Part shown: positions 18,208-34,857 of the stretch, in pieces | Layout of the letters: every line of letters begins with the position of its first letter | How positions within the stretch are numbered: the stretch's first letter is position 1 | Origin: Candidatus Hydrothermia bacterium | Lineage (GTDB): Bacteria > Hydrothermota > Hydrothermia > UBA1063 | Assembly: GCA_049719805.1 (NCBI GenBank) | Contig: JBNARF010000002.1 | Location: 275,495-339,494, forward strand | Reading direction: 5' to 3' | DNA: 64,000 bases | The notes under the pieces: generated by a model | Databases searched by the model: none | What the model saw: the letters and a program-made list of their open reading frames with translations, nothing else | What the model was told of the DNA's origin: nothing | Position numbers and translations under genes: made by a program

Positions 18208-19360
18208 TAACATTAATAGATTTTGGCCAAAAGCGCTGAAAAGAGCTAGGATTGGCCTTCTGGCTCATTCCGCTTCGGTTAGCAGTAACTTGAAGTATTC
18301 ATGGGATGTATTGAGGGATGAAAACCTGGCAGAACTGGTGGCAATTTTTGGACCACAACATGGACTTTTTGGTGAGACCCAGGCCAATATGGTGGAGTGG
18401 GAAGGTTATAAGGATCCTGTTACAGGCTTGTACATTTACAGTCTTTACGGAAAAAACAGAAAGCCGACAAAGGAAATGCTTGAAGGAATTGATGGCATAG
18501 TTATTGATCTTCAAGATGTGGGTTCTCGCTACTATACCTACATATGGACCATGTACTTGGTTATGGAAGCTTGCCTTGAGAATAAGAAGTTTGTTGTGGT
18601 TCTTGATAGACCCAATCCAATTAGTGGCATTTCCGTTGAGGGGCCTGTCTTAAAGGAGGAATATTCTTCCTTTGTGGGTCTAAAACCCCTTCCTATAAGG
18701 CACGGAATGACCATAGGAGAAATAGCATTATACTTTAAAGAGACTTTTCTTAAAGATCTTGAACTTCATGTTATAAGAATGACGGGATGGAAGCGTGGCT
18801 TTTTCTGGTCAGATACAGGATTGGAATGGGTAAATCCTTCACCCAATATGCCTTCCGAGAAAACTGCTCTTCTATATCCCGGTATGTGCCTTCTTGAGGG
18901 CACTAATTTAAGTGAAGGAAGGGGCACTACAAGACCCTTCGAAATTTTTGGTGCACCTTTTATAGACCCCTTTAAACTTAGCGAAAAATTGAATTCCCTT
19001 AAATTAGATGGAGTTTTCTTTAGACCCCTTTACTTCATCCCGAGTTTTGACAAATTTAAAGGCGAGAGATGTGGTGGCATACAGATTCATATTCTGGATA
19101 AGAGAAAAATAAAACCCTTTAAGGTCGGAGTTGCAGTACTTATGACCGTTATGAGTATGTATCCTGAAGGTTTCAGTTGGTCTTCCGGTCCATATGAATA
19201 TGAGTTTGAAAAGAAACCGATAGACATTCTTGCGGGGACAAGTCGTTTAAGGGAAGCACTGGAAAGGGGAGAGCCTCTGAAAAAACTGGAAGAGTGGTGG
19301 AATCAAGAATCAAAGGAATTTGATGAGCGGGTAAGAAAAAAGTATCTTCTTTATGAGTGA
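18173..19360 (+). CDS. DUF1343-family protein (NamZ-like exo-beta-N-acetylmuramidase)
   Basis: 395 aa; DUF1343 signatures (GLLAHSASV, FGPQHG, DRPNP); start may be an internal Met since the ORF overlaps the upstream gene. Confidence 0.65.
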   Translation: MGGNLVVRTGIDNINRFWPKALKRARIGLLAHSASVSSNLKYSWDVLRDENLAELVAIFGPQHGLFGETQANMVEWEGYKDPVTGLYIYSLYGKNRKPTKEMLEGIDGIVIDLQDVGSRYYTYIWTMYLVMEACLENKKFVVVLDRPNPISGISVEGPVLKEEYSSFVGLKPLPIRHGMTIGEIALYFKETFLKDLELHVIRMTGWKRGFFWSDTGLEWVNPSPNMPSEKTALLYPGMCLLEGTNLSEGRGTTRPFEIFGAPFIDPFKLSEKLNSLKLDGVFFRPLYFIPSFDKFKGERCGGIQIHILDKRKIKPFKVGVAVLMTVMSMYPEGFSWSSGPYEYEFEKKPIDILAGTSRLREALERGEPLKKLEEWWNQESKEFDERVRKKYLLYE

Positions 19361-21230
19361 GCTATATATCCTTGTTTTATCCGCTGGATTCGGTGAACGC
19401 CTCAGACCTATTACTTACTCTATTCCCAAGGTTCTTTTACCTGTACTTGGCAAACCCCTCCTTATCAGGGTCCTTGATAATTTAAAAAAGTTTTTCCCGC
19501 GCTCAGAAGTTTACGTAAACTTGCACCATCTTGCTGAAAAAGTAAGCAGAAGTTTAAAGGAATTTTACCCTGAAGTTATTACCGTTTACGAGCCTCAGAT
19601 ATTAGGAACAGGTGGAGGAATTGTTAATGTTTCAAAAATCTCCCGTGGAGATAATATCCTGGTGCAAAATGGAGATATTCTAACATATTTTGATTTAAGA
19701 GGGTTTTATGAATACCATAAAAAGAATAATTTTGACATTACGCTGGCTATTAGCCAAAAAGTTTCTAAAAAAAATCTGCTGGTAAAAGGCACATTATTTC
19801 AGGGTATAAAGGAGGAAGGGCATACAGGATTTGCCGGCGTTGCTATTTATAACATGGAATTACTTCGGAACATGAGTCTGTATACTTTTGATGCTAAGGA
19901 AGTATGGGAATATTGCATAAGAAGAGGTGGACGTATTGGAGTATTTGACATTGGAGATTCCTTCTGGGTGGATGTGGGTACTCCACAAAGTTACGCCAGA
20001 TTGATACGAAATATATTGCAAAAATATGGCGAAAATGTTTTTATAAATACAACATCTTTGGATTTGCCAGTGGTGGAATTTGACGGCTTTTTCGTGATAG
20101 AAGGGGAACCTCGCCTTATTAAAGGGAGCAAATTCAGGAATGTCATTATTATCGGAGATCCTGAGGTAGAGTTCGGAATTTATGAAAACTGTCTGATTTC
20201 ACCTTCGGGTAAGACTACCTTTAGTGAGATAGAGGTTTTTGGTGGGGTGGGTAATGGGTATGAAACAGGATTTGGAGGATCTGACAGGAAGTTTATAAGG
20301 TTTTTCAAGGGCTCAGGGGAAAGATTAGTGGAATGCCATTTTGGTAATGATAGAGAAAGTTTAGAAAAACATTTAATGGCTTATAATTTACTTTTAAAAT
20401 GCGGCATCCCAGTGGCACGAATTTACAATGTGGATCATAAACGTAATGTTATTCAGATGGAAGATCTCGGAGATGTAACCCTTTATTCTTTTTTGAAGTA
20501 TCCGCCCAACAAAGTTTTTGAGAAAGAATTCTATTTTAAAGGTATTGATTATTTAGCAAGATTACATGCCTTGGGGGTTAAAGAGAAAGAATCGGAATAC
20601 TTTAGAAGGTGGCAATTTGATTACGAGTATTTTCTTTGGGAGCAAAACCATTTTTTCAACAATTTTTTGGAAAGAGTGTTGGGAGTTAAGGCAGGAAATA
20701 GTTTAAAGGAATGTTTGAGCAAAATTGCGGAGATTTCCGCGTCCTTTCCACGAGTTGTTCTGCACAGGGATTTTCAGAGTCAGAATTTAATGGTGGACAG
20801 GATGGGGGGTTTAAGAGTAATTGACTTTGTAGGAATGCGTTGGGGTCCTAAAACTTATGACCTTGTTTCTTTCCTGTTTGATCCCTACAGAGACATAGGA
20901 GAAGAACTAAGAGAGAGCTTAATCAGTTATTATATAGAGCGATATAAAGAGCTAAGTGGTAACAAACTAACTAGAGAAGAAATTGATAAGGAACTCCCTT
21001 ATATCAGGGTCCAAAGACTCCTTCAAGCTCTGGGTGCATACGGATATCTTTCCAGGGTGAAGGGTAAAACATTTTTTGAAAAGTTTTTCTTCCGAGGCGT
21101 GCAACTTCTCATTGATGTCCTAGCTCACAAAGCTTTGCGATGTAAAGAGTTAAATGAATTATTTCTGATTTTAAAAAATGCTTTTCTTGACACTAAGGAT
21201 AATATTGATTATAATATACCAATTGTTTGA
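19353..21230 (+). CDS. Bifunctional sugar-1-phosphate nucleotidyltransferase (MurU/LicC-like) / APH-fold kinase (AmgK/LicA-like)
   Basis: 625 aa; N-terminal NTP-transferase motifs (LVLSAGFGERLRP, GTGGG); C-terminal phosphotransferase Brenner motif (VVLHRDFQSQNLMV) and DFVGM metal-binding loop. Confidence 0.6.
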   Translation: MSELYILVLSAGFGERLRPITYSIPKVLLPVLGKPLLIRVLDNLKKFFPRSEVYVNLHHLAEKVSRSLKEFYPEVITVYEPQILGTGGGIVNVSKISRGDNILVQNGDILTYFDLRGFYEYHKKNNFDITLAISQKVSKKNLLVKGTLFQGIKEEGHTGFAGVAIYNMELLRNMSLYTFDAKEVWEYCIRRGGRIGVFDIGDSFWVDVGTPQSYARLIRNILQKYGENVFINTTSLDLPVVEFDGFFVIEGEPRLIKGSKFRNVIIIGDPEVEFGIYENCLISPSGKTTFSEIEVFGGVGNGYETGFGGSDRKFIRFFKGSGERLVECHFGNDRESLEKHLMAYNLLLKCGIPVARIYNVDHKRNVIQMEDLGDVTLYSFLKYPPNKVFEKEFYFKGIDYLARLHALGVKEKESEYFRRWQFDYEYFLWEQNHFFNNFLERVLGVKAGNSLKECLSKIAEISASFPRVVLHRDFQSQNLMVDRMGGLRVIDFVGMRWGPKTYDLVSFLFDPYRDIGEELRESLISYYIERYKELSGNKLTREEIDKELPYIRVQRLLQALGAYGYLSRVKGKTFFEKFFFRGVQLLIDVLAHKALRCKELNELFLILKNAFLDTKDNIDYNIPIV

Positions 21231-21250
21231 TAGGTGTAAGGTGATAAAAA

Positions 21251-23050
21251 ATGTTTAAGACAAGTGGACCAGATTTCAAAAAAATTAAGCTCGAAGCCCA
21301 AAAGCTCATTGGGCAGGGTAAATATCAGGAAGCGTTAAATAAGTTAATAGAACTAAGCAAGCAGATCAGCGACCCAGAAGTTTACAATTCTATTGGCGAC
21401 CTCTATATCAGGTTCCAGAATAATGAGCAAGCCCTTCAATATCTCGAAAAAGCATACAAAATCTACAGAGAGCAGGATTTCAGAGAGATAGCTATTTCTG
21501 TGGCTAAGAAAATTCTTCGTATCGAAAAGGATAGGCATGATATTTACATTGATTTGGTTGAAATGGAAATGGAGAACGGTAATGTGGATAAAGCCCTTGA
21601 TTGGGCATTGGAGTTTGTAAAGCTACCTAACCCTGATCCTAGCTATGTGGGTAAGCTTTTTAGATTATTAAATGATATAGCTAATGAAATTCAGGAGAAT
21701 ACAGAACAGGCGACAAAATTCGAGAGACTCTTCATTAAATTGCAAGAGCTTGCGGAGCAGCTCTCTTTAGCTACCCTTGAGTCAGGAATTGAAATTGCGG
21801 ATGCAAAGGAATTTTTTGATAAAGGAGATTTTGAAGAATACGGTGGATTTTTTGATGCGGGTCACCCAGCTGAAGAAGCGAAGATTAAGAAAACCACCAG
21901 AAAGAAGGAAGAGCAAGAACCTGTTGAAAAGATAGAATTTTTTGAACAAGAAGAGGAAGAGAAAAGTTTTATAACTGCTTCTGGATTTTCCAATTTTCTT
22001 GAAGTGGAGAAATCTGATAATATTGAAAAAACCGTTCTGGAAGAGAAACCTACATCTTCTCATAAGTCAGAAGAAAGTGTGAAATTCGAGATTTCTGAGA
22101 AAACTGAGTTTGTAGAAGAAACTGAAGAAAAATTGGATTTGTTACCCCCTGAATCCAAGAGCGTCTCGGATAAGAGGCCGCCATCTGAGCAGTTTAAAAC
22201 AGTTTTAGAGGAAGAGCTTCCAGAGGAAATCGAGGCAGAACAAAAGGTATGGGAATCATTGACATCAAAAAAAATCACCGAACAGAAGCCGGTTCCTGAA
22301 GTAACAAGCAGTAAAGAATCTTCAGCTGAAGAGGAGGAACCTGAAAAACTCAGGGTGGCTTTTGACGAGTATGTGAAACTGAAAGAAGAGGAGAAAAAAG
22401 TCACTTTTGATGAGGTTGTAAGCGAGAAATTTAAGAGTGAATCAAAGGAAGAACCGAAACTGGAGCAAAAACCGACTGAGGGGGGAGTTCTCGAAAAAGT
22501 TGTAAAAGAGTCAACAACTGAGAAATTCTCCAAGGAGTTTAAGTCTTCCGTTTTTCAGGAAAAAGAAGCAGCACCCGCTGTAGTGCAGAAACCTAGAGAA
22601 TTTAGTGAAGCTATGTCAGATTTACTAAAGATTATAAGAGATTTCAAAGAAGATCTTGTTGGTTTAGAGACGTGGCCTTACTCTTCCGATTCTCCCTTTG
22701 AAGTTGCAAAAGAATATTACGAAATGAAGCTCTATCAGCCAGCAGTCGAAGAATTCCAGAAGCTTCTAGGAGACCCCAGATACAGGCTTCAATCAATGAC
22801 TTATTTAGGAAAGATATTCTATGAAAGGGGTGAGTTAGATTTTGCCGAGGCAATACTCAGGAAGGCTATCGAAGAAGCTGGATATATGGAGAAGGAATCC
22901 ATTGAGGCTTACTATTATCTTGCCCTAACCCTTGAGGCGCTTAAGCGTTTTATGGAAGCAAAAGAATTATATTTGAGGGTGTATATATTCGATTCAAGTT
23001 TTAGGGATGTTGCTGCAAAAGTAATGACATTAAGGAGTAAAGCACTATGA
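21251..23050 (+). CDS. Hypothetical protein: TPR-like helical termini flanking a long acidic/Lys-rich low-complexity region
   Basis: 599 aa; TPR-like N- and C-terminal segments, central ~300 aa rich in E/K/S/T; stop overlaps the next gene's start (ATGA). Confidence 0.45.
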   Translation: MFKTSGPDFKKIKLEAQKLIGQGKYQEALNKLIELSKQISDPEVYNSIGDLYIRFQNNEQALQYLEKAYKIYREQDFREIAISVAKKILRIEKDRHDIYIDLVEMEMENGNVDKALDWALEFVKLPNPDPSYVGKLFRLLNDIANEIQENTEQATKFERLFIKLQELAEQLSLATLESGIEIADAKEFFDKGDFEEYGGFFDAGHPAEEAKIKKTTRKKEEQEPVEKIEFFEQEEEEKSFITASGFSNFLEVEKSDNIEKTVLEEKPTSSHKSEESVKFEISEKTEFVEETEEKLDLLPPESKSVSDKRPPSEQFKTVLEEELPEEIEAEQKVWESLTSKKITEQKPVPEVTSSKESSAEEEEPEKLRVAFDEYVKLKEEEKKVTFDEVVSEKFKSESKEEPKLEQKPTEGGVLEKVVKESTTEKFSKEFKSSVFQEKEAAPAVVQKPREFSEAMSDLLKIIRDFKEDLVGLETWPYSSDSPFEVAKEYYEMKLYQPAVEEFQKLLGDPRYRLQSMTYLGKIFYERGELDFAEAILRKAIEEAGYMEKESIEAYYYLALTLEALKRFMEAKELYLRVYIFDSSFRDVAAKVMTLRSKAL

Positions 23051-24288
23051 TGAAGAAGGATTTAAAAGTTGAAGAAAAACCTCAAGGTAAGGTTACCTTC
23101 GTGGAGCTTCTTGAAAAGAGCGGCATCATTTCCAAAGAGGCCATTAAAGCTGCCCTTGCTGAGCAATGGGAGAGAGGGGGAACTTTAGAAGAGATTCTCG
23201 TTGAAAAGGGATACTTAAACGAGGAACAATTTGTTAAATTTATACTTGATAAATTTCCTATGCTACATTATGTGAGCTTGAAAGATATAGATATTGATAC
23301 TGAAGCTGTTGAACATATCCCAGCCAGAATTGCTAAGAAGTACTTACTGATCCCGGTTAGAAAGAAGGGGAAATCCTTAGCTGTGACCATGGCAAATCCC
23401 TTAAATAAAGAAATGCTCATCGAACTGAAAAACGTTACAGATTTGAAAATTAGACCATTTGTTTCAAAGATTTCGGAGATAAAGGAAGCCATTGCTAAGT
23501 ATTACGGAGAGATTGGAGAAGCAGAGGAAATTCCAGAACCTTTCACTGCAGATAAAGTTAAGAAAGAGATTGGAGTCCTGATAGCAAAGGATAAAACCTT
23601 TGAAAATTTCGTGGTCGGGGAAACTAATAAGCATGCCTATTTGCTTTGCGCAGATATTGCAAAAACTCGAGGAGTTGGAGAGAAGCGGCTTTTCATATGG
23701 GGGCCAGAAGGTACGGGGAAAACTCATCTTCTTCAAGCTATTGCGAACTACCTTTTAGAGAATGAAGCTCTAAGGAGATTCATATACATTGATGCTATAA
23801 AGTTTGTTACAACCCTGAAGGGTTTTAAGTCAGAGCGCGAGGTGGATCGGTATTTAAAAATTCTTACAGATCTTGATTTACTTCTCTTTGATGACTTAGA
23901 CTTTCTAATAGGTAAGGATTATGCTCAAGAGGCTTTATTTTCAGTGCTTTCTGAATTAAGAATGACCGATAAACAAGTGGTAATATCCTCATCATATCCG
24001 ATGAAGGATATGCCTACTTTGAGCGTAAAAGTAAAATCTTTAATTTCTGAATTCCTTGTAGTTGGAATGGATGAGCCCTCCGTGGAGCTTAAAAGGGACA
24101 TTGTAAAAAGATTTTTGCAGGAAGAATCACTTCCCTCTGGTGTAGTTGAGTTTCTTGTAAAGAAGCCTGGTTTAACAGTTAAAAAGATTGAATCTATTGT
24201 TCGCACATTGCTCACTTACAAGAGGATAGGAGAGAAAATTGATGAAAATCTTTTAAATAAGGTGGTTTCAGGGATTATTGAAAGTTAA
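23047..24288 (+). CDS. Fusion protein: N-terminal GspE-N (T2SSE_N/MshEN-like) domain + DnaA/Hda-like AAA+ ATPase domain, no DnaA domain IV
   Basis: 413 aa; residues ~15-155 match the GspE/PilB N-terminal domain pattern; residues ~180-400 match DnaA domain III: FVVGETNKHAY, Walker A WGPEGTGKTHLL, Walker B LLLFDDLDFL. Confidence 0.6.
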   Translation: MMKKDLKVEEKPQGKVTFVELLEKSGIISKEAIKAALAEQWERGGTLEEILVEKGYLNEEQFVKFILDKFPMLHYVSLKDIDIDTEAVEHIPARIAKKYLLIPVRKKGKSLAVTMANPLNKEMLIELKNVTDLKIRPFVSKISEIKEAIAKYYGEIGEAEEIPEPFTADKVKKEIGVLIAKDKTFENFVVGETNKHAYLLCADIAKTRGVGEKRLFIWGPEGTGKTHLLQAIANYLLENEALRRFIYIDAIKFVTTLKGFKSEREVDRYLKILTDLDLLLFDDLDFLIGKDYAQEALFSVLSELRMTDKQVVISSSYPMKDMPTLSVKVKSLISEFLVVGMDEPSVELKRDIVKRFLQEESLPSGVVEFLVKKPGLTVKKIESIVRTLLTYKRIGEKIDENLLNKVVSGIIES

Positions 24289-24302: not shown

Positions 24303-25922
24303 ATGGCTTTGTTAGGTCAACTGGGTTTGGGAGCTAAGGGCAAAACGAAAGGGAGCATAGTAGCCCTTGATATAGGTTCAAAATATGTAAAAGCTGCGTT
24401 ATTTGAGAGAAGGAAGAACGAGTTAGTGTTTAGGGGACTAGCTGTGGAAAAGGTCCCACCCGATGTGATCCTGGGTAAAGATATAATCGACCGGCAGGTT
24501 CTGGTAGATAAGATAAGGGATGCTTACTCCAAGCTTGGCACTGAAGTTAGAGATGTGGTGGTGAACGTAGCCGGTGGTGAGGTGAAAACTAAGGCCTTCG
24601 TTATACCTGACCTAAAGAAAAAAGAAAAGATAGCGGAGGCAGTGGACTGGAAGATAAAGGATGAGTTGCACGTGGATCCTACCGAGATAGTCAGGGATTA
24701 CGAACTTCTTGGAAAAAGCGAAGTGAGTGAGTCTCTGGATATGCTTGTGGGTACTGCCAAGTTGAGTGTGGTTTATGATATCATGGATATTGTGAGGGCT
24801 GCAAGACTTGAGCCTATAATGGTTACAACCGATCTCCTGGCCCTTTGGAGAGTTATTGAGGCCCTCGATTTAAAAGACCTTCCTGGAGATAACGTATTTT
24901 TCCATCTGGGTTACGAAGTGGGACTCCTAATTCATGTTAAAGATGGCAAGATCCAACAGATGATCGAAGTCCCAGCGGGTTTAAAATCATATGTGGATAA
25001 CTTATCCAGATTCTTTGACCTAAGAGTAGAAGAGGCCGAAGAAATTGTTATAAATGGCCCTACTTCCGGTATTGATAAAGTTTCTTTTGATGAGACTGTT
25101 GATTCGCTCCATGAGAGGTTTCTTTCGCCTGAAAAATATATACCTTTACTTGGTGAGCCAGGTGTTAAATTTAATTTATACATCTCTGGTGGTGGAAGTA
25201 AATTATACGGTGTAAGTGCTTTTGTTAAGAATAAGTATGGTGTCGATCTTAAATTCATAGATGTCTCAACCTTGTTTGCAGTTGAAGAACCTGTAAAGGG
25301 TATCAAAGATTATTTAAACTTACTAACTATAGTAATTGGTGATGCACTTCATTATTTCAGGAAAGGGCACAAGATAAACTTAATGCCTCAAGAAGCAGGG
25401 ATGGAAGCAGTAGCGGTTGAGGGTGAGGTTTCTTTATTACCTCATGTGGTGGGGGCACTCTCAATATGGCTTGTAATTGTCATTGTAATTGCTGTGCTGT
25501 CCATCGGAACCTCAAGGAGGATTTCAGGGCTTAAGAATCAAATAGCCAGGTTACAGGCTGAAGAGGTGGAACTTCAGAGAAAAGCTGACGAAATCAGGGG
25601 ATTTAAACAAGAAATTGAAGACGCCAGGCGAAAATTGGATCTTATTCAGCAGCTTCAAATGGGTAGAACGGTTTATGTAAGACTTCTCGATGAAATAAAC
25701 AGGGTTCTTCCCTCCGGGTGCTGGCTCGAGTCTGTAAGAAAAAGTGGTAGTTATCTTAATGTTTCTGGAGGAGCCCTTTCAAATATTAGAATATCTCAAT
25801 TTATGTCTAATCTCAAAAAGTCAGATGTAGTTGATTCTGTATACCTCCAGTCCATTGAAGTCTCTGGGGGTAGTCAACAAGAAAGATATGCAAGGTTTGA
25901 AATTAATGTTAAACTGAAATAA
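24303..25922 (+). CDS. pilM: Type IV pilus assembly protein PilM fused to PilN-like TM/coiled-coil/periplasmic region
   Basis: 539 aa; actin-like PilM N-terminus (IVALDIGSKYVKAA), then TM helix (ALSIWLVIVIVIAVLSIG), coiled coil and periplasmic domain as in PilN. Confidence 0.65.
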   Translation: MALLGQLGLGAKGKTKGSIVALDIGSKYVKAALFERRKNELVFRGLAVEKVPPDVILGKDIIDRQVLVDKIRDAYSKLGTEVRDVVVNVAGGEVKTKAFVIPDLKKKEKIAEAVDWKIKDELHVDPTEIVRDYELLGKSEVSESLDMLVGTAKLSVVYDIMDIVRAARLEPIMVTTDLLALWRVIEALDLKDLPGDNVFFHLGYEVGLLIHVKDGKIQQMIEVPAGLKSYVDNLSRFFDLRVEEAEEIVINGPTSGIDKVSFDETVDSLHERFLSPEKYIPLLGEPGVKFNLYISGGGSKLYGVSAFVKNKYGVDLKFIDVSTLFAVEEPVKGIKDYLNLLTIVIGDALHYFRKGHKINLMPQEAGMEAVAVEGEVSLLPHVVGALSIWLVIVIVIAVLSIGTSRRISGLKNQIARLQAEEVELQRKADEIRGFKQEIEDARRKLDLIQQLQMGRTVYVRLLDEINRVLPSGCWLESVRKSGSYLNVSGGALSNIRISQFMSNLKKSDVVDSVYLQSIEVSGGSQQERYARFEINVKLK

Positions 25923-25935
25923 AGGAGGTTTAATT

Positions 25936-26385
25936 ATGAAGAGGTATTTTTACCTTATAATTGCAGTAGTCCTTGGTCTTGTGCTTTCATCCTGTGAAAA
26001 GGTGGATAAAGACGCTACACTGACAGGTCGGGTAGGGTATGCCATTGCGTATATCGATACGGTTCATCAGGAAACCACCTTTGTTTTTCAAAATGCAGCG
26101 GGTGCAAGGGTTTATTTAATGGGTGATGATGCTTCACCTAATCCTTATACAGGTCCGGTACTTGAAACCACTACTGATTCCACCGGAACTTATCAGTTTG
26201 TCGTAAATGCTGTGACTGAGCCCAGTACCTCTTTTATCCCTACTAACAATTTTGGGATTAAGATTCAGGTGTTCTACTTTGATAATATAATTGGCCCAGC
26301 CTATGGAGAACTTAGCGGATATCACTTTACGCCCGGGAAAGACGCCACACTTCCAATAATATATCTTAAGCGGCAAACTCAGTAG
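25936..26385 (+). CDS. Small lipoprotein, beta-sandwich-like (carboxypeptidase-regulatory-like); unknown function
   Basis: 149 aa; signal peptide with lipobox LVLSSC; TGTYQF-type motif; AGGAGG RBS; sits between pilMN and pilO. Confidence 0.5.
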   Translation: MKRYFYLIIAVVLGLVLSSCEKVDKDATLTGRVGYAIAYIDTVHQETTFVFQNAAGARVYLMGDDASPNPYTGPVLETTTDSTGTYQFVVNAVTEPSTSFIPTNNFGIKIQVFYFDNIIGPAYGELSGYHFTPGKDATLPIIYLKRQTQ

Positions 26386-26394
26386 GAGTGAAAA

Positions 26395-26985
26395 ATGGAA
26401 AAATTAAAATCTCCGGCAGTAATATGGCTTTTAGGAGTAATTATATACGTATTGACCTTTATGTTCCTCTGGAATTCCATGTATGCCTCCAAATCCAGGG
26501 AACTCAAGACAGTAGAAGCAAAATATAAGGAGCAATACTCTAGAGTTCAGAATCTTCGTGAATTTGTAAAGGATTATGATAGAATAATAAGAGAAAAGGA
26601 CTCTTTGCTTGCCCTGTGGGAGGAGACTCAGAGGTTTTTGCCTCAGGAAGAAAATATGGACACATGGCTTTCTCAGATTACTGGTATGGCCATTAGTTCA
26701 GGGGTTCAAATATACAGTTTTAAGCCACAGTCACCCAGACAGCAGGAATTATATCGAGAGTATCCCATTGTGATGAAGGTAAGGGGTGGCTTCCATGAGC
26801 TTGGTACATTTATAAGCTTTATAGCCAACTCAGAGAGGATAATGAGTGTGGAGAATCTTCAACTACAACGTGTATCAGGACAAGAAATAGAGAGTGGACA
26901 AACGGTTGATGCTGAATTGACGGTTATATGTTATGTTTATAGTCCAGTGCAGGGGGCCGGAAAACCATCGGGAGGTTCACGATGA
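26395..26985 (+). CDS. pilO: Type IV pilus assembly protein PilO-like
   Basis: 196 aa; N-terminal TM helix, coiled coil, periplasmic domain; position between pilMN and pilP/pilQ. Confidence 0.55.
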   Translation: MEKLKSPAVIWLLGVIIYVLTFMFLWNSMYASKSRELKTVEAKYKEQYSRVQNLREFVKDYDRIIREKDSLLALWEETQRFLPQEENMDTWLSQITGMAISSGVQIYSFKPQSPRQQELYREYPIVMKVRGGFHELGTFISFIANSERIMSVENLQLQRVSGQEIESGQTVDAELTVICYVYSPVQGAGKPSGGSR

Positions 26986-27770
26986 GAAAAATTGTATTTT
27001 TTAATTTTTTATTTATTACATTATTGCTTAGCACTTTGCGAGCCCAGAATATGATAACTTCTTATTCTGTTCAAGAATCCGATGAAGGAGTTAGCATTAT
27101 TCTCGAGTTCTCTGAAGGGGTACCTCAGTATAGAGATTTTACCCTTGCAAATCCTCCCAGGATAGTGGTAGATTTGATTAACGTGGGGTATTCCTTAGGG
27201 GGAAAGCTTTTCGTAGTGGGAAAAGGTGGAGTGGAGCGAATAAGAGGAGCTCAGTACCAGAGAGAGCCGGAACTTGTTGCAAGAATTGTTCTTGATGTAG
27301 ATGAGTTTAGAAGCTACTCCATAGTAACATCGGAGAAATCCCTTATAATAAAAGTAGGTGGTATATCCAGCGTACCCTATTCCTCTTCTGCGCCAGGCGA
27401 AGCTGCTCCAGCACCTACCGAGAAAACCACTACAGTAAAAACTGAAGAAAAACAATACAAATTGGAAGTTGGGGAGAAGTACTTCTATTCTTCAAGGGGT
27501 AAAAAAGACCCCTTTAAGCCAGAAGCATTTGGTGAAGAGGAAGAACTTTTAAATGTTAGCGAGGCAAAACTCCTTGGGATTATAAAAAGCGATGAAGGAA
27601 ATGTAGCCCTTCTTCAGGATAGAAGGGGAGTAGGCTACGTTTTGAAAGAAGGAGACAGGGTCAGAAACGGTCGGGTAGTAAAGATTGAATCCGACCGTGT
27701 AGTTTTCGCTATTGTAGATTTTGGTTTTACAAGAAGGGTTGAATTAAAATTGGAGGAAGAAAATAAATAA
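26982..27770 (+). CDS. Secreted AMIN-domain protein with C-terminal PilP-like domain
   Basis: 262 aa; signal peptide; AMIN-like motifs (PPRIVVDLINV, ARIVLDVDE); Pro/Ala/Thr linker; C-terminal KDPFKP...LLGII...VKIESDRVVF resembles PilP. Confidence 0.5.
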   Translation: MRKIVFFNFLFITLLLSTLRAQNMITSYSVQESDEGVSIILEFSEGVPQYRDFTLANPPRIVVDLINVGYSLGGKLFVVGKGGVERIRGAQYQREPELVARIVLDVDEFRSYSIVTSEKSLIIKVGGISSVPYSSSAPGEAAPAPTEKTTTVKTEEKQYKLEVGEKYFYSSRGKKDPFKPEAFGEEEELLNVSEAKLLGIIKSDEGNVALLQDRRGVGYVLKEGDRVRNGRVVKIESDRVVFAIVDFGFTRRVELKLEEENK

Positions 27771-27784
27771 AAGGAGGTTTAGTA

Positions 27785-28969
27785 ATGGGGATTTTTAGAA
27801 AAGCGCTTCTTATCCTGCTTACGGTGAGTGTAATATCTGCTCAAGAAGCCCGAATCACCATGAGTGTAGAACAGGCAGATATAAAAACCGTATTGAGAGC
27901 CTTTGCAGAAGTTGGGAGAGTTAATATAATTACAACACCGTCCGTAACTCAGAAAGTTACTTTTAACATAAAAGATGTACCCTGGAGACTGGCTCTAAAA
28001 TCCTTGCTTGATGCCTATGGGCTTGCAATGATTGAAAGTGAGGGACTCATCACCATTATGACTCAACAGGAGTTTGCAAACTTAAAAACAGCAGCGGACC
28101 TGGATATTAAAGTACTTAAAGTACGTTATGCCGATGCCCGAAAAGTTGCAGAGGTCTTAAAGTCGCAGTTATCTCCAAGAGGAGATATTAAGTTGGATGA
28201 AAGCTCTAACGCCCTTATTGTCACGGATCTCAGAGTAAACCTGTACAGAGTGGAGGATCTCCTCACCCAGGTAGATAAGCCTTACCCCCAGGTTATGATA
28301 AAAGGAAGAATAGTGGAAGTGGACTACAATGAGTCAAGAAGGCTTGGGTCAGAGCTTAAAGCAATTAGGTTTGGAAATCCCGGTTTCGAAGCCTCACCCT
28401 ATACTGCTGGAGGACTTGAACCTGAAAACGCAACTTATTTAACGGTGAATTATCTCGGACCTAATGCTGCAAGAATTGAGGCAGCTATTGATGCTCTTGA
28501 GGGCAAATCAAAAGCCAATACCATTTCTGAGCCTAAAATCATGGTCCTTGACAATGAAAAGGCATCTATATATTCGAAGATAAGGGTGCCGGTTATTTCA
28601 AGGGATATGGCCGGAAATACTGTCGTTCAGTTTGAAGAAACCGGTATAAGCCTTGAAGTAACACCTCATATTATTCCAGATGGCAAAGTGGTTCTACACA
28701 TTAAAACAGAGACTGGGGACCTCACCGGATATTCTGCTGCTGGTCAACCAATAACCTCCAAGAGAGGAGCAGAGACGAAGGTTACAGTACCTGATGGAGA
28801 AACTGTATTAATTGGTGGTGTTATCATTGACAAGGATAAGAAAGCTAATTCAGGCCTTCCTTTGCTTTTGAGAATCCCCATTTTAGGCCAGATTTTTGGT
28901 CGTCATTCTGTAGAAAAAAGTAAGGCTGAGATTTTGATATTCTTAACACCCACTGTGGTGAGAGAATGA
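27785..28969 (+). CDS. pilQ: Type IV pilus secretin PilQ (minimal form)
   Basis: 394 aa; signal peptide, secretin N-domains, C-terminal secretin signature (GETVLIGGVI...PLLLRIPILGQIFG...ILIFLTPTVV). Confidence 0.85.
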   Translation: MGIFRKALLILLTVSVISAQEARITMSVEQADIKTVLRAFAEVGRVNIITTPSVTQKVTFNIKDVPWRLALKSLLDAYGLAMIESEGLITIMTQQEFANLKTAADLDIKVLKVRYADARKVAEVLKSQLSPRGDIKLDESSNALIVTDLRVNLYRVEDLLTQVDKPYPQVMIKGRIVEVDYNESRRLGSELKAIRFGNPGFEASPYTAGGLEPENATYLTVNYLGPNAARIEAAIDALEGKSKANTISEPKIMVLDNEKASIYSKIRVPVISRDMAGNTVVQFEETGISLEVTPHIIPDGKVVLHIKTETGDLTGYSAAGQPITSKRGAETKVTVPDGETVLIGGVIIDKDKKANSGLPLLLRIPILGQIFGRHSVEKSKAEILIFLTPTVVRE

Positions 28970-29526
28970 AAATAAGATTTTTCAATCACAAGAAGGGCCT
29001 CACATTAGTTGAGGTCCTTCTTGTGATTTTTATTATCAGTATCTTAGTAGCAATACCTTTCTGGGGGGGGACTCAATATATAGCCCGCAACAGGCTAAGA
29101 AGTGAAGCGGTTAAGATTAAATCCTTTACCGAAAACGAGAGAACCAATGCTATGGCCATGACCACAAGACGTGCCATAGAGTTCAATGGGTGGGATGTAA
29201 CAATTTACGTGGAAGATCTATCGCGCCCTTTGCCTAATCTGGATTCTATTGTTGCCACTTACCCCAATTACTTTAGCTCTAAAATAAATTTCGGCGGGCT
29301 TCCGGGTGCGACGGCTCTAAGGGGAGGTTCCATTGACTCCGATGGTGTAATGTTTGGGAGTTCTCAGAATAATAACAGGTTGGTCTTCACAGCCTTTGGA
29401 CTTGTTGAGAATCCCGGAGAGCTATATATAAATGATGGACGAAATCTAATGTGTATCGCTGTTAACGGATTTGGACAAGTTAGAATATATAGATGGACAG
29501 GGGGAAGCTGGAATGAAGTTAAATAA
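28966..29526 (+). CDS. Prepilin-type minor pilin/pseudopilin (FimU/GspH-like)
   Basis: 186 aa; class III signal peptide KKG/LTLVEVLLVIFIISILVAI with Glu at +5. Confidence 0.65.
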   Translation: MKIRFFNHKKGLTLVEVLLVIFIISILVAIPFWGGTQYIARNRLRSEAVKIKSFTENERTNAMAMTTRRAIEFNGWDVTIYVEDLSRPLPNLDSIVATYPNYFSSKINFGGLPGATALRGGSIDSDGVMFGSSQNNNRLVFTAFGLVENPGELYINDGRNLMCIAVNGFGQVRIYRWTGGSWNEVK

Positions 29527-29935
29527 AAAAGGTTTTTCTCTTATTGAGCTTCTCGTGGCTCTTTCTATACTGGCTATTGGACTCCTCGGTATAATTCCCC
29601 TTGCTATCACCACTATACGCCTCAATACCTATCAGAATCAAATGCTTAATGCTAAGTATTTAGCAGAGAGGCAGGCGGAATTTTTAAGAAGTATTACGTT
29701 TACTGCACCTGAACTCGCAAATGATAACGACAACAATGACCTATACGATACCGCAAACCCTGACCACATTCTTGCTACAACCATTGAAGGGATCACATAT
29801 AATGTGATGTGGAACATTGTGGATGATTCTGCCGGGACTAGAACTATTAATATAATAGTTCAGTGGGTTACGCCACGAACTGGAGAAACAAAAAACTATA
29901 ATATTACCCTCGTAAGGAGTAGCTATGAAATTTAG
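29513..29935 (+). CDS. Prepilin-type minor pilin (PilV-like)
   Basis: Prepilin motif KKG/FSLIELLVALSILAIGLLG; chosen start ATG 29513 (MKLNKKGF...), ORF track starts at 29471; overlaps upstream gene by 14 nt. Confidence 0.65.
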   Translation: MKLNKKGFSLIELLVALSILAIGLLGIIPLAITTIRLNTYQNQMLNAKYLAERQAEFLRSITFTAPELANDNDNNDLYDTANPDHILATTIEGITYNVMWNIVDDSAGTRTINIIVQWVTPRTGETKNYNITLVRSSYEI

Positions 29936-30827
29936 AAGAGCTATAACACTCTTGGAACTTATTGTGGCTTTGGGCATATTATCTGTGCTTCTTACTAGTG
30001 TTTTTATAGTATATAGAAATCAAATGAGGACAGCCACCACTCAGCAAAGTATTTCCGTTCTCCAGACTGATATTCAGCAGGCTTTTAACATTCAAAAGTG
30101 GGATATGCTGATGAGCGGGTATGGTGTTAGTGCAAATGTTGCTCCCATATGGAGCATAAATAAGACAAATGCCCCTGATTCTTTAATATTACGGAGCACG
30201 GGTTTTCTTATTGGTGGTACCACCCGCTGGAGTTACGTTATGGATGCAATGACGGGGACTGAACTTATCGTTGGGCGCTGGAATGACGAAAGGGAAGATA
30301 TTCATGTTGGTGACGTGATTGTAATAATGACTGATAGAAAGGGTCAGATAGCTCCACCTGTTTCTGTCACAGCTCGCGAGGCGATGACTTATAACAATCA
30401 GGATGCGTACAGGCTGACCTTAAGTGGGAATGTTCAAACGGCTCAGGGTAACTTTGTCTTTGTGGTTCCTGGAGGTCAATTTCAAACTGTAGTTTATTGG
30501 GTTAGAAATGACACGCTGTTTCGGGGGAATGAGCCCTTTTTAACGGGAGTTGAAGATTTTCAGGTATCTCACTGGGTGGACTTAAATGGCAATGGGATAG
30601 AGGATGTGGGGGAGAGGGTTATGAATCCTTCTGGTGTAAGTAATTTTACGGGTTTCTTAAGGTCTACAAGGGTTAGTCTTGTGCTTTTAGGTCCTGTGGA
30701 TAGAGATTATACATTCCCTGATAATCAAATTACTGTGGAAGATCATACCTATACAATTACCGGGTCTGCGAGGAATAGAAGGCGCAGGTTTTATACCATA
30801 GAAGTAAAAGCGAGGAATATAAGATGA
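29925..30827 (+). CDS. Prepilin-type minor pilin (PilW-like), atypical Ala at -1
   Basis: 300 aa; N-terminus MKFRRA/ITLLELIVALGILSVLL with Glu at +5 but Ala instead of Gly before the cleavage site. Confidence 0.55.
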   Translation: MKFRRAITLLELIVALGILSVLLTSVFIVYRNQMRTATTQQSISVLQTDIQQAFNIQKWDMLMSGYGVSANVAPIWSINKTNAPDSLILRSTGFLIGGTTRWSYVMDAMTGTELIVGRWNDEREDIHVGDVIVIMTDRKGQIAPPVSVTAREAMTYNNQDAYRLTLSGNVQTAQGNFVFVVPGGQFQTVVYWVRNDTLFRGNEPFLTGVEDFQVSHWVDLNGNGIEDVGERVMNPSGVSNFTGFLRSTRVSLVLLGPVDRDYTFPDNQITVEDHTYTITGSARNRRRRFYTIEVKARNIR

Positions 30828-31273
30828 AAAAAGGAGTTGCTTTAATAACGGTGATTCTCGTAGTTGCGTTTCTTGTGGTTTTAGGTGGAATAACAGCCTA
30901 CATGGTCCAGAGAAGTTTGAGAATTACCGGGACCTTCAGAAGGGCTCTATCCACCTTTGAGGCTGCGGAAGGTGGTATTGAGATAGGTGTGAATGAGATA
31001 TGGTCTGCTTCAGAAGAAGGAAGATCACTGGGAACGATAACGAGGAACGTAGGACAAAGGTCAGTAACTGTAACACCATCTCGTCTTTTTGTGATGACGG
31101 AAAGGGGTGGCTCATTAGAGTTTGCTGCGGCATACGAAGGTGTTGGAAGGGGAGTAGGAGGGGGTGGTGCTGCAATATTTTATAGAATCTTATCTTTATC
31201 CCGCGGTGGACCTGAAGATAGGGTGGAACTTGAAGTTTTATATAGGAAAGTTGTAGGTATAATAGCACAATAA
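30824..31273 (+). CDS. PilX-like minor pilin / pilus assembly protein
   Basis: 149 aa; N-terminal hydrophobic helix (GVALITVILVVAFLVVLGGITAY) lacking Glu5, as in PilX. Confidence 0.5.
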   Translation: MKKGVALITVILVVAFLVVLGGITAYMVQRSLRITGTFRRALSTFEAAEGGIEIGVNEIWSASEEGRSLGTITRNVGQRSVTVTPSRLFVMTERGGSLEFAAAYEGVGRGVGGGGAAIFYRILSLSRGGPEDRVELEVLYRKVVGIIAQ

Positions 31274-31284
31274 AAGGAAAAGGG

Positions 31285-34200
31285 GTGATAATTATGTTTA
31301 AAAAAAGGTGGTTATTTGGTACATTAATGATTATAGTGGGGGCACTCATGGCTCAAACCACTGAGATGCCCTGCAACGTTCCGCCGTTTTTGGCGGAGAA
31401 AATTCCGCCGAATATCTTAGTTATTATGGACAATTCTGGTTCTATGGGTGAAATGGCATATAATGAGCCTTATAACCCTAACAAAAAATACTATGGCTAT
31501 TTTAATCCCGATGCAGTTTATCGTTATGACAACAATGAATGGGTTCCTGTAGATCAAAGTGCAAACTTTAATACCACCTGGCCTGGAAACCTCTTGAACT
31601 GGGCAATTATGTCACGTTTCAGTGTTTTAAAGAAAGTTCTTGTGGGTGGAAAGGCAACGGCACGAAGCCCCAGGGGATTTGCCCACACCCTGATTTGTGA
31701 GTCACGCAATTCCTGGGATAAATATTACACATATGGCGGAAGTAAATACCGTTTTACCGTTTCCGGTGGAAGTGCTGGATCTGCGAGTAGTATAGTAATA
31801 AGGAGATGGACAGGAAGGAATTGGGTGCAACTGCTTTCTGCAACTAATAAAGTTGCAATCGACTCAACCTTCTCCCGAGGTGTTATTCAGAAGCTTGGTG
31901 ATAAGGATATAGATGGCAGATGGGATGATGACACTCCGAGATTCTGGCTAATAATGTTTAATAGCAGAGGGAATAACAGTGAAATGGGGTCAGGTAGTAC
32001 AACCCCAGTAAATGTCAGCGGGGAACACGATGGCGGTCGTGTGGAGTCTTATTATCAGGATAACAATTCAATGAGTGATTTTGTTAATGCCATTCAGAAT
32101 GCCAAAGCAGAGACCTGGACCCCCCTCGCTGAATGTTTACTTGAGACATGCTGGTATTTTAGACAAGTTCCCACACCTCTTTTCTTCCCTAATGACTACG
32201 GGACGGACCGGCAATGGGATCCTATGGAGCCTAAGAGTGTATGGTGCCGAAAGTCTTTTGTGCTCTTTTTGACCGACGGCCAGGCAACGAGAGATAGAGA
32301 TCCCGTTTTGCATCAGCATATAGGTGATTACGATGGTGACGGAATGGAACCATCGTTTTATCAGGGTGTAGATGATCCACAGTTCAGCAGCCATTACCTT
32401 GATGATGTAGCCTTTTGGATGCATACCAACGATCTGAGACCTGATATCCCGGGGACCCAGAACCTCACCCTTTATGGTGTCTTTGTTTTTGGATATGGGC
32501 ACGATCTTTTAAAAGAAGCCTGTAAAGATGGCGGATTCATCGATTACAATGGTAACAATAGACCTGACCTTACGAGAGAGTGGGATCATAATGAAGACGG
32601 AGTTCCCGATACATATTTCGAGGCACAGGAGGGAGAGCAGATCGAAAAGGCTATTATGGATGCGATACTCTCTATTTTAGCGAGGGTAAGTTCAGCTACG
32701 GCTGCATCTGTGGTCACTCAGACCCAGAGAGGTGAAGGAACTATATATCAGGCCTTTTTCCAGCCCACTTACACTACGCCTCTGGGCGAGATAAAATGGC
32801 TTGGACAATTGGTGGGCTACTTTGTTGATAAAAATGGAAATATTAGAGAAGATAGCAATAATGATTTAAGACTCACTAGTGATGACCGTATTTTGAAATT
32901 TAAGACTGAAGGAATTGAAACCAGAGTTGAGAGATGGGCTGCCACTTCTGATGATAATCCCCTTTACAAGGTTGATGAAGTAGACCTCTGGGATGTTAAT
33001 TTCCTCTGGGATGCTGGCAAAAGATTACTGGAAAGAAGCGCTGACGAGCGGATTATAAAAGCAATAATTAAACAGAATAACACATTTGCTCTCATAGATT
33101 TCAAAACCAATAACAGGAGCCTTCTCAGCTCTTACATGGAAGGTTCTGATGCCTTCAAGGACTCTTTAATAAATTACATTAGAGGTGTTGATTATAATAA
33201 TCCCAGCTGGCGATCCAGGACATTTGAGCCGAATAAGGTCTGGAAACTTGGTGATATAGTCTACTCTACGCCGACTTTTGTTGGAAGACCGACGGAAAGG
33301 TATGATCTCATATATGATGATGTATCTTACAGGGAATTTTACAACCGGAAGAAGAACAGGCGAAACATAGTCCTTGTTGGCGCCAACGATGGAATGCTCC
33401 ATGCGTTTAATGCCGGTATTTTTGATACACTTGAAAGAAGGGTAGATGGAATGGGTAGGAGTTTGGGTGAAGAATTGTGGGCAGTTATTCCTATGAACCT
33501 CCTTCCCCATTTGAAATGGCTGAAGGATCAGCAATATTGCCATGTTTACTATGTTGACCTTAAACCAAAAGTTACAGACGTAAAGATATTTAGTGATGAT
33601 GAGGATCATCCTGAAGGCTGGGGTACTGTCGCCATCGTAGGAATGAGATTTGGAGGAACTCCAATATCCATATCCAGTGGCACGTATAGGTCTGCTTTCT
33701 TTGCTCTTGACATTTCTAACCCAGATAATCCCCGGGTGTTGTGGGAGTTTACAGATCCCAATCTTGGTTATACTATTTCCTATCCCTCTGTTTTGAAAGT
33801 TGTGGATCAGAACGGTGAAAAGTGGTTCGTTGTTTTTGGTTCTGGAACCACAACTACCCCCACAGGACACACTTCCAATCAAAATGCTTATTTCTATATC
33901 CTTGATCTTAAGACGGGAGCCCTTTTAAGAAAGATACAGATACCATATCCTTCAAATCAGACGCAAGGTGCGTTTTGTGGTAATCCCATCTCCGTGGACG
34001 TTAAGCTGGATTACAGTTGTGATATAATCTATTTACCTGTTACATATATTGAAAGATCAGGTAATACAAATATAGAAAAGGGTGCTCTTTACAGGATAGT
34101 AACTGGCAATAGTACAAATCCGCAAGCCTGGTCCCTCTCCATGGCGATAAGACTAGATAGGCCAGTAACCTCAGGGACTGCCGCTTCCATGGACGAATAT

Positions 34201-34857
34201 GGTAATTTATGGGTATTCTTTGGGAGCGGGAAGTACTTTACAGACCAGGATGAGATTGATTCAAGGACCAATTATCTTCTAGGATTTAAGGATCAGTACT
34301 GGAATGGTGGTTGGACAAGTGCTACCTCTCCAAGCTATGCCCTTTCAGATCTTCTCAATGCAACTAATATTAATGTAAGAGTTGACACTTCCACTGGCAG
34401 TGCCACTGTTGAAAACGTACAAGGCCTTCCAAATAATTTATCTTTCGAAGCCTTTGTGGATTCTGTTAATAGAAGATATAAGGGGTGGTATGTGGAGCTC
34501 CAGAGTGGTGAAAAGTCCCTTAATTTCCCATTAGTTCTTGGCGGTGCTGTATTTTTCACCACCTATAAGGTTATTGATGACCCTTGTGCTTTTGGTGGTC
34601 AGGGATGGCTCTATGTACTCTATTACAAGACTGGAACAGCATCTAAAAATGCGCCCCTGGGTTTACTACAGAACAATTACGCTGCCACCAAGGTTGAAGT
34701 ACAGGGTATGCCTGCTTCTCCTGCAGTTCACATAGGATCAAGGGATGAGGCAAGGGCGGTGGTTCAGACCTCAACTGGCGAGATTATTTCCATGCCCGTG
34801 GAACTTCCCTGGAGTCCGAAGAGCGGTGCAAGGGTCTGGAGACCCGCAAACTTTTAA
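31285..34857 (+). CDS. PilY1/PilC-like pilus tip adhesin with N-terminal vWA (MIDAS) domain
   Basis: 1190 aa; signal peptide; MIDAS motif VIMDNSGSM near the N-terminus; large C-terminal region consistent with a PilY1 beta-propeller; follows four minor pilin genes. Confidence 0.65.
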   Translation: MIIMFKKRWLFGTLMIIVGALMAQTTEMPCNVPPFLAEKIPPNILVIMDNSGSMGEMAYNEPYNPNKKYYGYFNPDAVYRYDNNEWVPVDQSANFNTTWPGNLLNWAIMSRFSVLKKVLVGGKATARSPRGFAHTLICESRNSWDKYYTYGGSKYRFTVSGGSAGSASSIVIRRWTGRNWVQLLSATNKVAIDSTFSRGVIQKLGDKDIDGRWDDDTPRFWLIMFNSRGNNSEMGSGSTTPVNVSGEHDGGRVESYYQDNNSMSDFVNAIQNAKAETWTPLAECLLETCWYFRQVPTPLFFPNDYGTDRQWDPMEPKSVWCRKSFVLFLTDGQATRDRDPVLHQHIGDYDGDGMEPSFYQGVDDPQFSSHYLDDVAFWMHTNDLRPDIPGTQNLTLYGVFVFGYGHDLLKEACKDGGFIDYNGNNRPDLTREWDHNEDGVPDTYFEAQEGEQIEKAIMDAILSILARVSSATAASVVTQTQRGEGTIYQAFFQPTYTTPLGEIKWLGQLVGYFVDKNGNIREDSNNDLRLTSDDRILKFKTEGIETRVERWAATSDDNPLYKVDEVDLWDVNFLWDAGKRLLERSADERIIKAIIKQNNTFALIDFKTNNRSLLSSYMEGSDAFKDSLINYIRGVDYNNPSWRSRTFEPNKVWKLGDIVYSTPTFVGRPTERYDLIYDDVSYREFYNRKKNRRNIVLVGANDGMLHAFNAGIFDTLERRVDGMGRSLGEELWAVIPMNLLPHLKWLKDQQYCHVYYVDLKPKVTDVKIFSDDEDHPEGWGTVAIVGMRFGGTPISISSGTYRSAFFALDISNPDNPRVLWEFTDPNLGYTISYPSVLKVVDQNGEKWFVVFGSGTTTTPTGHTSNQNAYFYILDLKTGALLRKIQIPYPSNQTQGAFCGNPISVDVKLDYSCDIIYLPVTYIERSGNTNIEKGALYRIVTGNSTNPQAWSLSMAIRLDRPVTSGTAASMDEYGNLWVFFGSGKYFTDQDEIDSRTNYLLGFKDQYWNGGWTSATSPSYALSDLLNATNINVRVDTSTGSATVENVQGLPNNLSFEAFVDSVNRRYKGWYVELQSGEKSLNFPLVLGGAVFFTTYKVIDDPCAFGGQGWLYVLYYKTGTASKNAPLGLLQNNYAATKVEVQGMPASPAVHIGSRDEARAVVQTSTGEIISMPVELPWSPKSGARVWRPANF

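Follow-up and report, generated by a model that had tools for sequence, protein, structure and literature searches.

How is a type IVa pilus (T4aP) fastened to the cell wall when its secretin, PilQ, carries no AMIN domain? The question is raised by a pilus operon within a 64-kb stretch of DNA from a Candidatus Hydrothermia bacterium (contig JBNARF010000002.1, positions 275,495 to 339,494; this whole stretch is the window), in which the gene between pilO and pilQ encodes a protein with an AMIN domain followed by a PilP domain, here called AMIN-PilP. AMIN domains of PilQ bind peptidoglycan, as shown for Pseudomonas aeruginosa PilQ (PMC5285504), and are needed to place PilQ at the septal and polar wall and, via PilP, to place PilMNO there (PMC5285504, PMC10653833). 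PilP in turn binds the N0 domain of PilQ through its homology region (HR) domain; in P. aeruginosa PilP the lipid is attached at Cys18, and the largely unstructured N-terminal part of this protein contacts the PilN-PilO coiled coil (PMC11525922). We find that the AMIN domain of AMIN-PilP sits where PilP usually has its lipid anchor, that no lipobox is present, that the adjacent PilQ lacks AMIN, and that AMIN-PilP and AMIN-less PilQ strictly co-occur across lineages. In this PilP the AMIN domain and a flexible linker probably replace the lipid anchor and supply PilQ with a wall anchor in trans.

Domain architecture of AMIN-PilP and PilQ

A preliminary description of this locus had proposed that the N-terminal half of the 262-aa protein is an AMIN domain, and profile and fold comparisons bear this out. 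The Pfam AMIN model (PF11741) matches residues 31-124 with 38.9 bits (E=9.5e-10), above its curated cut-off of 20.5, and finds AMIN as well in all but one of the 19 close family members and in 33 of the 45 distant ones. A profile built from a 19-member family alignment (A1), which is also the source of local hidden Markov models (HMMs) for the AMIN half and the PilP half, matches the first AMIN domain of Myxococcus xanthus PilQ (E=4.5e-18). The AlphaFold2 (AF2) model contains two confident beta domains (residues 23-128 and 190-256; predicted local distance difference test (pLDDT) about 82-91 by block), the first of which reproduces the eight-strand beta fold of the AmiC N-terminal domain with a root-mean-square deviation (RMSD) of 1.9 Å over 114 columns (Foldseek, 4bin). 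The AMIN signature, Rxxx[D/E] on alternate strands (de Souza et al. 2008, PMC2572700), is present as R60IVVD64 and R101IVLD105; R101 is invariant in a 142-sequence alignment, and R60, D64, V103 and D105 are conserved in at least 90% of it.

The C-terminal half had been called PilP-like, an assignment for which we rely on family profile, fold prediction and gene position, the match of the single sequence to Pfam PilP being sub-threshold. The 19-member profile matches M. xanthus PilP (3jc8_Pa, E=1.9e-9, profile positions 154-243), as does a broad-family profile (E=2.6e-5). Foldseek aligns the domain to P. aeruginosa PilP (2y4y) with an RMSD of 1.9-2.1 Å over 70-71 columns (TM-target 0.71-0.73), and also matches Neisseria meningitidis PilP 2ivw, 2lc4, 3jc8_Pa and the GspC HR domain 3oss_C. 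Pfam PilP reaches E<=1 in all 19 aligned members (best E=1.5e-7), and E<=0.01 in only 6 of 45 diverse members.

Between the two domains lies the Pro/Ala/Thr-rich linker of the preliminary description, whose disorder is supported by pLDDT values below 50 over residues 133-174 and again at 180-186. Linker length varies widely across 189 family members (median 250 aa; 10th-90th percentiles 29-336 aa), with a composition rich in A, P, K, S, T and E; linkers of the Zixibacteria-type proteins (L008, 6001-7980; L009, 5001-6653) span 250-400 aa. A tail of more than 25 aa follows the PilP domain in 28 of the 189 members (~15%). Just ahead of the HR domain, a Y.Y....GKRDPF motif falls within the alignment of the family profile to M. 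xanthus PilP 3jc8_Pa. Its D176 and P177 are invariant and Y169 and F178 at least 90% conserved in the 142 sequences, and [RK][DN]PF recurs in 176 of 189 members. The conserved segment at residues 164-180 is a candidate for contacting PilN and PilO.

AMIN-PilP contains no cysteine anywhere in its sequence and so is not a lipoprotein; a lipobox-like site occurs in only 5 of 189 family members. Its N terminus has the character of a cleaved signal peptide instead, with an AF2 helix at residues 2-17 and an AxA↓QN-like site in orthologues.

The PilQ protein that follows, 394 aa long, was described as lacking AMIN domains, and we reach the same result. Pfam detects N0, Secretin_N and Secretin only, the pilQ frame scores 1.5 bits with the family-derived AMIN HMM, and the protein aligns to residues 323-736 of N. 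meningitidis PilQ, that is, past the AMIN and B domains. Its best PDB match is M. xanthus PilQ (E=6.2e-49). Its score with the PilQ model TIGR02515, 253.4 bits, lies under the cut-off of 284.35, presumably because the AMIN/N-terminal part of that model has no counterpart in this protein. In a six-frame scan of the window with the family-derived AMIN and PilP HMMs, no second AMIN or PilP domain was found outside the open reading frame (ORF) at 26982-27770. PilQ-type secretins without AMIN are known, namely HofQ-like proteins and those of Synechocystis, Moraxella and B. cepacia (PMC10653833 among sources).

Recurrence across genomes

To place AMIN-PilP among its relatives, the A1 alignment was used in an exhaustive HMMER search of 1.84 billion representatives (50% identity clusters), which returned 282 cluster representatives at E<=1e-30. 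Two matched stretches, an N-terminal AMIN and a C-terminal PilP, are found in about 141 of the best 150 matches, in proteins of about 200-700 aa, and both local HMMs together recover the AMIN-PilP architecture in 233 of 277 fetched proteins (189 of 231 in an earlier subset). Five of the best 150 are multi-AMIN proteins, three of them PilQ secretins. Further AMIN architectures were met along the way (P0082, P0083, P0157 and P0069): PilQ secretins (877 and 1064 aa) whose AMIN domains are interspersed with TPR repeats, a 687-aa protein with four AMIN domains and SPOR, and a 1551-aa protein combining cadherin, fn3 and Calx-beta with three AMIN domains.

Conservation was read from the 142-sequence alignment and Pfam content from a 45-sequence subset. 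A locus search with 11 closer sequences places the gene in five metagenome-assembled genome (MAG) loci of WOR-3/Hydrothermota, at 48-69% identity; the separate ORFs are conserved among WOR-3/Hydrothermota genomes at 47-71% identity. L002 and L004 have a matching series of ORFs, in which AMIN-PilP has 261-263 aa and the secretin after it 398 aa. Ten distant members all lie within a pilM-pilN-pilO-[AMIN-PilP]-pilQ context, and the secretins beside them, 427-457 aa long (396 aa in L016), consist of N0/STN, Secretin_N and Secretin without AMIN.

Altogether the order pilO, AMIN-PilP, AMIN-less pilQ (394-457 aa) is kept in 14 of 14 loci, comprising the window and the 13 further loci L002, L004, L016, L006/7, L008, L009 (Zixibacteria), L010-L015 and the P0234 locus. 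Twelve loci were scanned, and in every one of them the sole AMIN and the sole PilP domain lie in one ORF. AMIN-PilP is a lineage-wide architecture and not a peculiarity of the window genome, and it occurs widely, at the least in WOR-3/Hydrothermota and Zixibacteria.

The comparison with related genomes confirms the observation that opened this analysis and supports its interpretation, namely that the anchoring module has moved to the PilP partner. AMIN is on PilP and off PilQ at all 14 loci; the move itself is something we infer about their evolution. A transfer from PilQ to PilP is hinted at because the AMIN domain of the window scores highest with PilQ-type AMIN domains (52-57 bits, against 37 for amidase) among the fetched proteins, a biased sample. 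A read-through fusion of pilP and pilQ that was then split anew would give the order PilP-AMIN, so the event presumably inserted the domain at the 5' end of pilP.

Proposed wall anchoring in trans and its alternatives

How might such a protein work? We propose that the HR beta-sandwich of AMIN-PilP would dock on N0 of the AMIN-less PilQ encoded downstream, while the Y..Y....G[KR][KR]DPF.P segment ahead of it would contact PilN and PilO of the alignment subcomplex. The AMIN domain would reach into the cell wall and presumably bind peptidoglycan. An AMIN-linker-HR chain seated on an N0-N1-secretin chain would rebuild in trans the series AMIN-linker-N0-N1-secretin that a canonical PilQ carries in cis. 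The secretin and the alignment complex would thereby be anchored to the wall and probably also targeted to the septum or pole. In either arrangement an N-terminally tethered AMIN domain would lie beside the N0/HR ring just under the wall, and PilP would have exchanged an inner-membrane lipid tether for a wall tether.

Comparison with known systems shows which parts of this arrangement are familiar. Like canonical T4aP PilP (P. aeruginosa, N. meningitidis, M. xanthus; PF04351), AMIN-PilP occupies the pilO-pilQ slot, ends in an HR beta-sandwich within about 2 Å RMSD of 2y4y, has a disordered region before it, and shares the Y..Y....GKRDPF segment with M. xanthus PilP. Unlike canonical PilP it has no lipobox or lipid anchor, but instead a signal peptide of the signal peptidase I (SPase-I) type, a folded AMIN domain and a linker. 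Canonical T4aP PilQ carries N-terminal AMIN copies (two in P. aeruginosa, three in M. xanthus, two in Neisseria) of the same fold and signature, joined by a flexible linker to the module of the N0/HR interface, whereas here the partner bears the AMIN domain, in a single copy per chain. The PilQ of the window begins at N0, a start that it shares with HofQ-type secretins and with other PilQ lacking AMIN.

For an HR domain joined with a wall anchor in a single chain, the nearest functional precedent is GspB/OutB of the Dickeya dadantii type II secretion system (T2SS), whose HR domain binds the secretin N0 and which attaches the secretin to peptidoglycan (PMC9239104). OutB differs in having an N-terminal transmembrane anchor and a C-terminal, non-AMIN peptidoglycan-binding extension, in belonging to a T2SS and in coexisting with GspC, and it has no detectable specific sequence relationship to AMIN-PilP. 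TsaP, in T4aP, is likewise a separate protein that gives the secretin a peptidoglycan-binding module in trans, but this module is LysM rather than AMIN, binds the secretin periphery rather than N0, and stands outside the alignment subcomplex. The pilus cluster of the window showed no TsaP-like gene.

Several points weigh against anchoring in trans. The Pfam PilP model (PF04351) gives AMIN-PilP 16.1 bits (E=0.011, residues 191-241) and so misses its cut-off of 25.6. The AF2 model is uninformative on the complex and leaves residues 133-186 unmodelled, and a PilP without a lipid anchor may be held less firmly at the inner membrane. The inspection covered the 64-kb window, and a second, canonical lipoprotein PilP or an AMIN-bearing secretin could be encoded elsewhere in the genome. 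The named taxa of the family are WOR-3, Hydrothermia/Hydrothermota and Zixibacteria only. Zixibacteria-type loci often share flanking genes (Peptidase_S8, Big_1/Invasin, AMP-binding), so the 14 loci amount to fewer than 14 independent lineages.

A more far-reaching version, which we consider rather unlikely, is that assembly proceeds wall-first, from the inside out, with AMIN-PilP docking on septal or polar peptidoglycan and then capturing PilQ monomers through the HR-N0 contact. The wall-targeted nucleator would then be a protein of the alignment subcomplex and not the secretin, and the long Pro/Ala/Lys-rich linkers (median 250 aa) might act as an adjustable tether or spring between wall and machine.

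Among the alternatives to wall anchoring by AMIN-PilP, the one that survives best, though we would give it little chance, keeps the protein as a PilP and makes its AMIN a protein-protein or ring-forming module, directed for instance to the 149-aa lipoprotein of the operon, to the outer membrane or to the pilus, with the wall anchor elsewhere. AMIN domains do occur in very diverse architectures (PMC2572700), and a conserved lineage-specific lipoprotein is encoded in the same operon; Zixibacteria-type loci, however, have AMIN-PilP and no such lipoprotein. The RxxxD strands typical of peptidoglycan-binding AMIN domains are invariant or nearly so in the family, and the fold stays within 1.9 Å of the AmiC AMIN domain. 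The reciprocal loss of AMIN from PilQ at 14 of 14 loci argues for functional substitution.

It is very unlikely that AMIN-PilP is an accessory paralogue while a canonical lipoprotein PilP encoded elsewhere does the work of PilP. Pfam PilP is insensitive in this lineage, so that copies could be missed, and 64 kb of the genome were inspected; yet at all 14 loci the gene sits precisely where pilP belongs, between pilO and pilQ, it appears to be translationally coupled to pilO, and no second PilP-like domain appears in the window or in 12 loci, the lineage-specific HMM included.

We attach just as slight a probability to AMIN-PilP being a T2SS-type GspC/GspB scaffold and the cluster a T2SS. The resemblances are real: a weak match of AMIN-PilP to NCBIfam GspC_delta (16.2 bits), weak Pfam T2SSB matches in 5 of 19 members at E<=1, additional matches of PilO to T2SSM_b and GspM, a PilM-PilN fusion that recalls GspL, and the precedent of OutB as an HR protein with a peptidoglycan-binding tail. 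The GspC_delta score, however, is far under its threshold of 150, the secretin gets its highest score with the PilQ model (TIGR02515 253 versus GspD 207 bits) and has M. xanthus PilQ as its nearest PDB structure, Pfam PilM_2, PilN and PilO are above threshold, and PDB comparison puts PilP ahead of GspC by sequence and by fold. The genes in the window run pilMN, a small lipoprotein gene, pilO, AMIN-pilP, pilQ, four prepilin-like genes and a gene for a 1190-aa PilY1; PilW, PilX, the other minor pilins and PilY1 mark the cluster as a type IVa pilus, and on this context and the profile scores we reject the T2SS assignment.

That AMIN-PilP and PilQ are one larger gene split by an assembly or sequencing error is virtually excluded, as the preliminary description had argued: the two genes lie on one strand 14 nt apart (a TAA stop, then 14 nt), but they are in different reading frames, each has its own ribosome-binding site and signal-peptide-like N terminus (TLRA↓QN in AMIN-PilP, VISA↓QE in PilQ) so that a fusion product would contain an internal signal peptide, and they are separate ORFs in 14 of 14 loci, in WOR-3/Hydrothermota as in far more distant loci from independent assemblies.

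Operon surroundings and meaning of the variant

The features of the operon are collected in Table 1. The ATG of AMIN-PilP overlaps the stop codon of pilO as ATGA (26982-26985, read from the sequence), which, with a GGAGG 6 nt before the start, suggests translational coupling of AMIN-PilP to pilO. NCBI has an entry for the identical protein (100%) on a 580-kb MAG contig, under the name 'AMIN domain-containing protein [Candidatus Hydrothermia bacterium]'.

Table 1 Features of the pilus operon and adjoining genes, in window coordinates
Feature	Position	Strand	Description
Exo-beta-N-acetylmuramidase NamZ	18173..19360	+	Peptidoglycan-recycling gene (pair spans 18173-21230)
Nucleotidyltransferase + APH-kinase fusion	19353..21230	+	Resembles AmgK/MurU
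Sigma-70 consensus	21187..21215	+	TTGACA-17-TATAAT, 12/12
599-aa protein with promoter	21187..23050	+	TPR repeats at both ends
MshEN-AAA+ protein	23047..24288	+	413 aa; MshEN 74-156, DnaA-type AAA+ ATPase domain 181-337
PilM-PilN fusion	24303..25922	+	539 aa; Pfam PilM_2 residues 22-251, PilN 460-538
Predicted lipoprotein	25936..26385	+	149 aa; lipobox LSSC
PilO	26395..26985	+	196 aa; Pfam PF04350 88.1 bits
AMIN-PilP ribosome-binding site	26971..26975	+	GGAGG, 6 nt upstream of ATG; read from sequence
AMIN-PilP gene	26982..27770	+	262 aa including signal peptide; ATG start, stop TAA 27768-27770
Signal peptide of AMIN-PilP	26982..27044	+	Residues 1-21, MRKIVFFNFLFITLLLSTLRA↓QN; SPase-I-like, no lipobox
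AMIN domain	27048..27365	+	Residues 23-128; RxxxD signature strands R60-D64, R101-D105
Linker of AMIN-PilP	27366..27470	+	Residues 129-163; disordered, Pro/Ala/Thr/Ser/Lys/Glu-rich
Conserved motif GEKYFYSSRGKKDPFKP	27471..27521	+	Residues 164-180; counterpart in M. xanthus PilP is YSYVYNPVGKRDPFRSP
PilP HR beta-sandwich	27549..27749	+	Residues 190-256; Foldseek, Pfam, family profile
pilQ ribosome-binding site	27773..27777	+	GGAGG; read from sequence
AMIN-less PilQ secretin	27785..28969	+	394 aa; signal peptide, N0 28-89, N1/Secretin_N 109-169, Secretin 237-393
Minor-pilin set and PilY1	28966..34857	+	GspH/FimU-like, PilV-like, PilW, PilX, PilY1; Pfam N_methyl, GspH, PilW, PilX_N, T4P_PilY1
Hairpin after pilQ	28984..29028	+	19-bp perfect stem and T-rich tract

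Several neighbours of AMIN-PilP are unusual in their own right. The PilM-PilN fusion has a GspL-like arrangement, with a transmembrane segment between PilM_2 and PilN; it recurs in L016, and L002 and L004 have ORFs of equal size, whereas pilM and pilN are separate in Zixibacteria-type loci. The predicted lipoprotein between pilMN and pilO is conserved in the same place in L016 (161 aa) as well as in L002 and L004 (148 aa); Zixibacteria-type loci lack it. It has no Pfam match and no PDB sequence match, and its single-sequence AF2 model (pLDDT 42) is unusable. It could be a lineage-specific pilotin or a membrane tether, PilP now being without a lipid anchor.

Directly upstream of pilMN, and overlapping the TPR gene before it, is the gene of a protein that pairs an MshEN domain, of the kind that serves MshE/PilB ATPases as a c-di-GMP-binding N-domain, with a DnaA-type AAA+ domain. 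The architecture is unusual, the identical Pfam pair stands at the same place in L016, and the protein is possibly a pilus regulator. The 599-aa TPR protein, which has a long acidic Glu/Lys/Ser-rich middle, is encoded behind a perfect sigma-70 consensus, and its gene is likely the first of the pilus operon. Upstream of it the operon is adjoined by the peptidoglycan-recycling genes. The hairpin that begins 15 nt past the pilQ stop lies where the first minor-pilin gene starts, within its 5' end. Neither L002 nor L004 conserves the hairpin, so we do not count it as a regulatory element; it is probably in part a by-product of the sequence coding for the prepilin N terminus.

A T4aP with AMIN on PilP, and with a PilP that has no lipid anchor, represents a new version of a familiar machine. 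Of the ten architectures in the original AMIN survey (PMC2572700), none is a PilP fusion, and we found no description of an AMIN-PilP protein in the open-access literature, an absence that is not proof of novelty. Database names capture each half on its own: NCBI calls the proteins 'AMIN domain-containing' or 'hypothetical', while JGI calls some close homologues 'Tfp pilus assembly protein PilP'. Because Pfam PilP finds so few of the diverse members (6 of 45), pilP often seems to be missing from the pilus operons of WOR-3, Hydrothermota and Zixibacteria, an annotation gap that the identification of AMIN-PilP fixes.

That a targeting domain should migrate between binding partners is unsurprising in principle, yet it provides a clean natural experiment. 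A wall-binding module found on either of two partners is a 'Rosetta-stone' observation that independently supports the interface between PilP HR and PilQ N0. The two arrangements also support the idea that having AMIN tethered near the N0/HR ring may matter more than which chain bears it. The loss of the lipid anchor in turn raises the question of how the alignment subcomplex holds together.

Polar as opposed to peritrichous pili have been accounted for by whether or not PilQ carries AMIN (PMC10653833). On that basis, lineages whose AMIN sits on PilP would be wrongly classed as 'AMIN-less', and if assembly of their pili does start at the wall, surveys of pilus placement that rely on the AMIN domain of PilQ would misclassify whole phyla.

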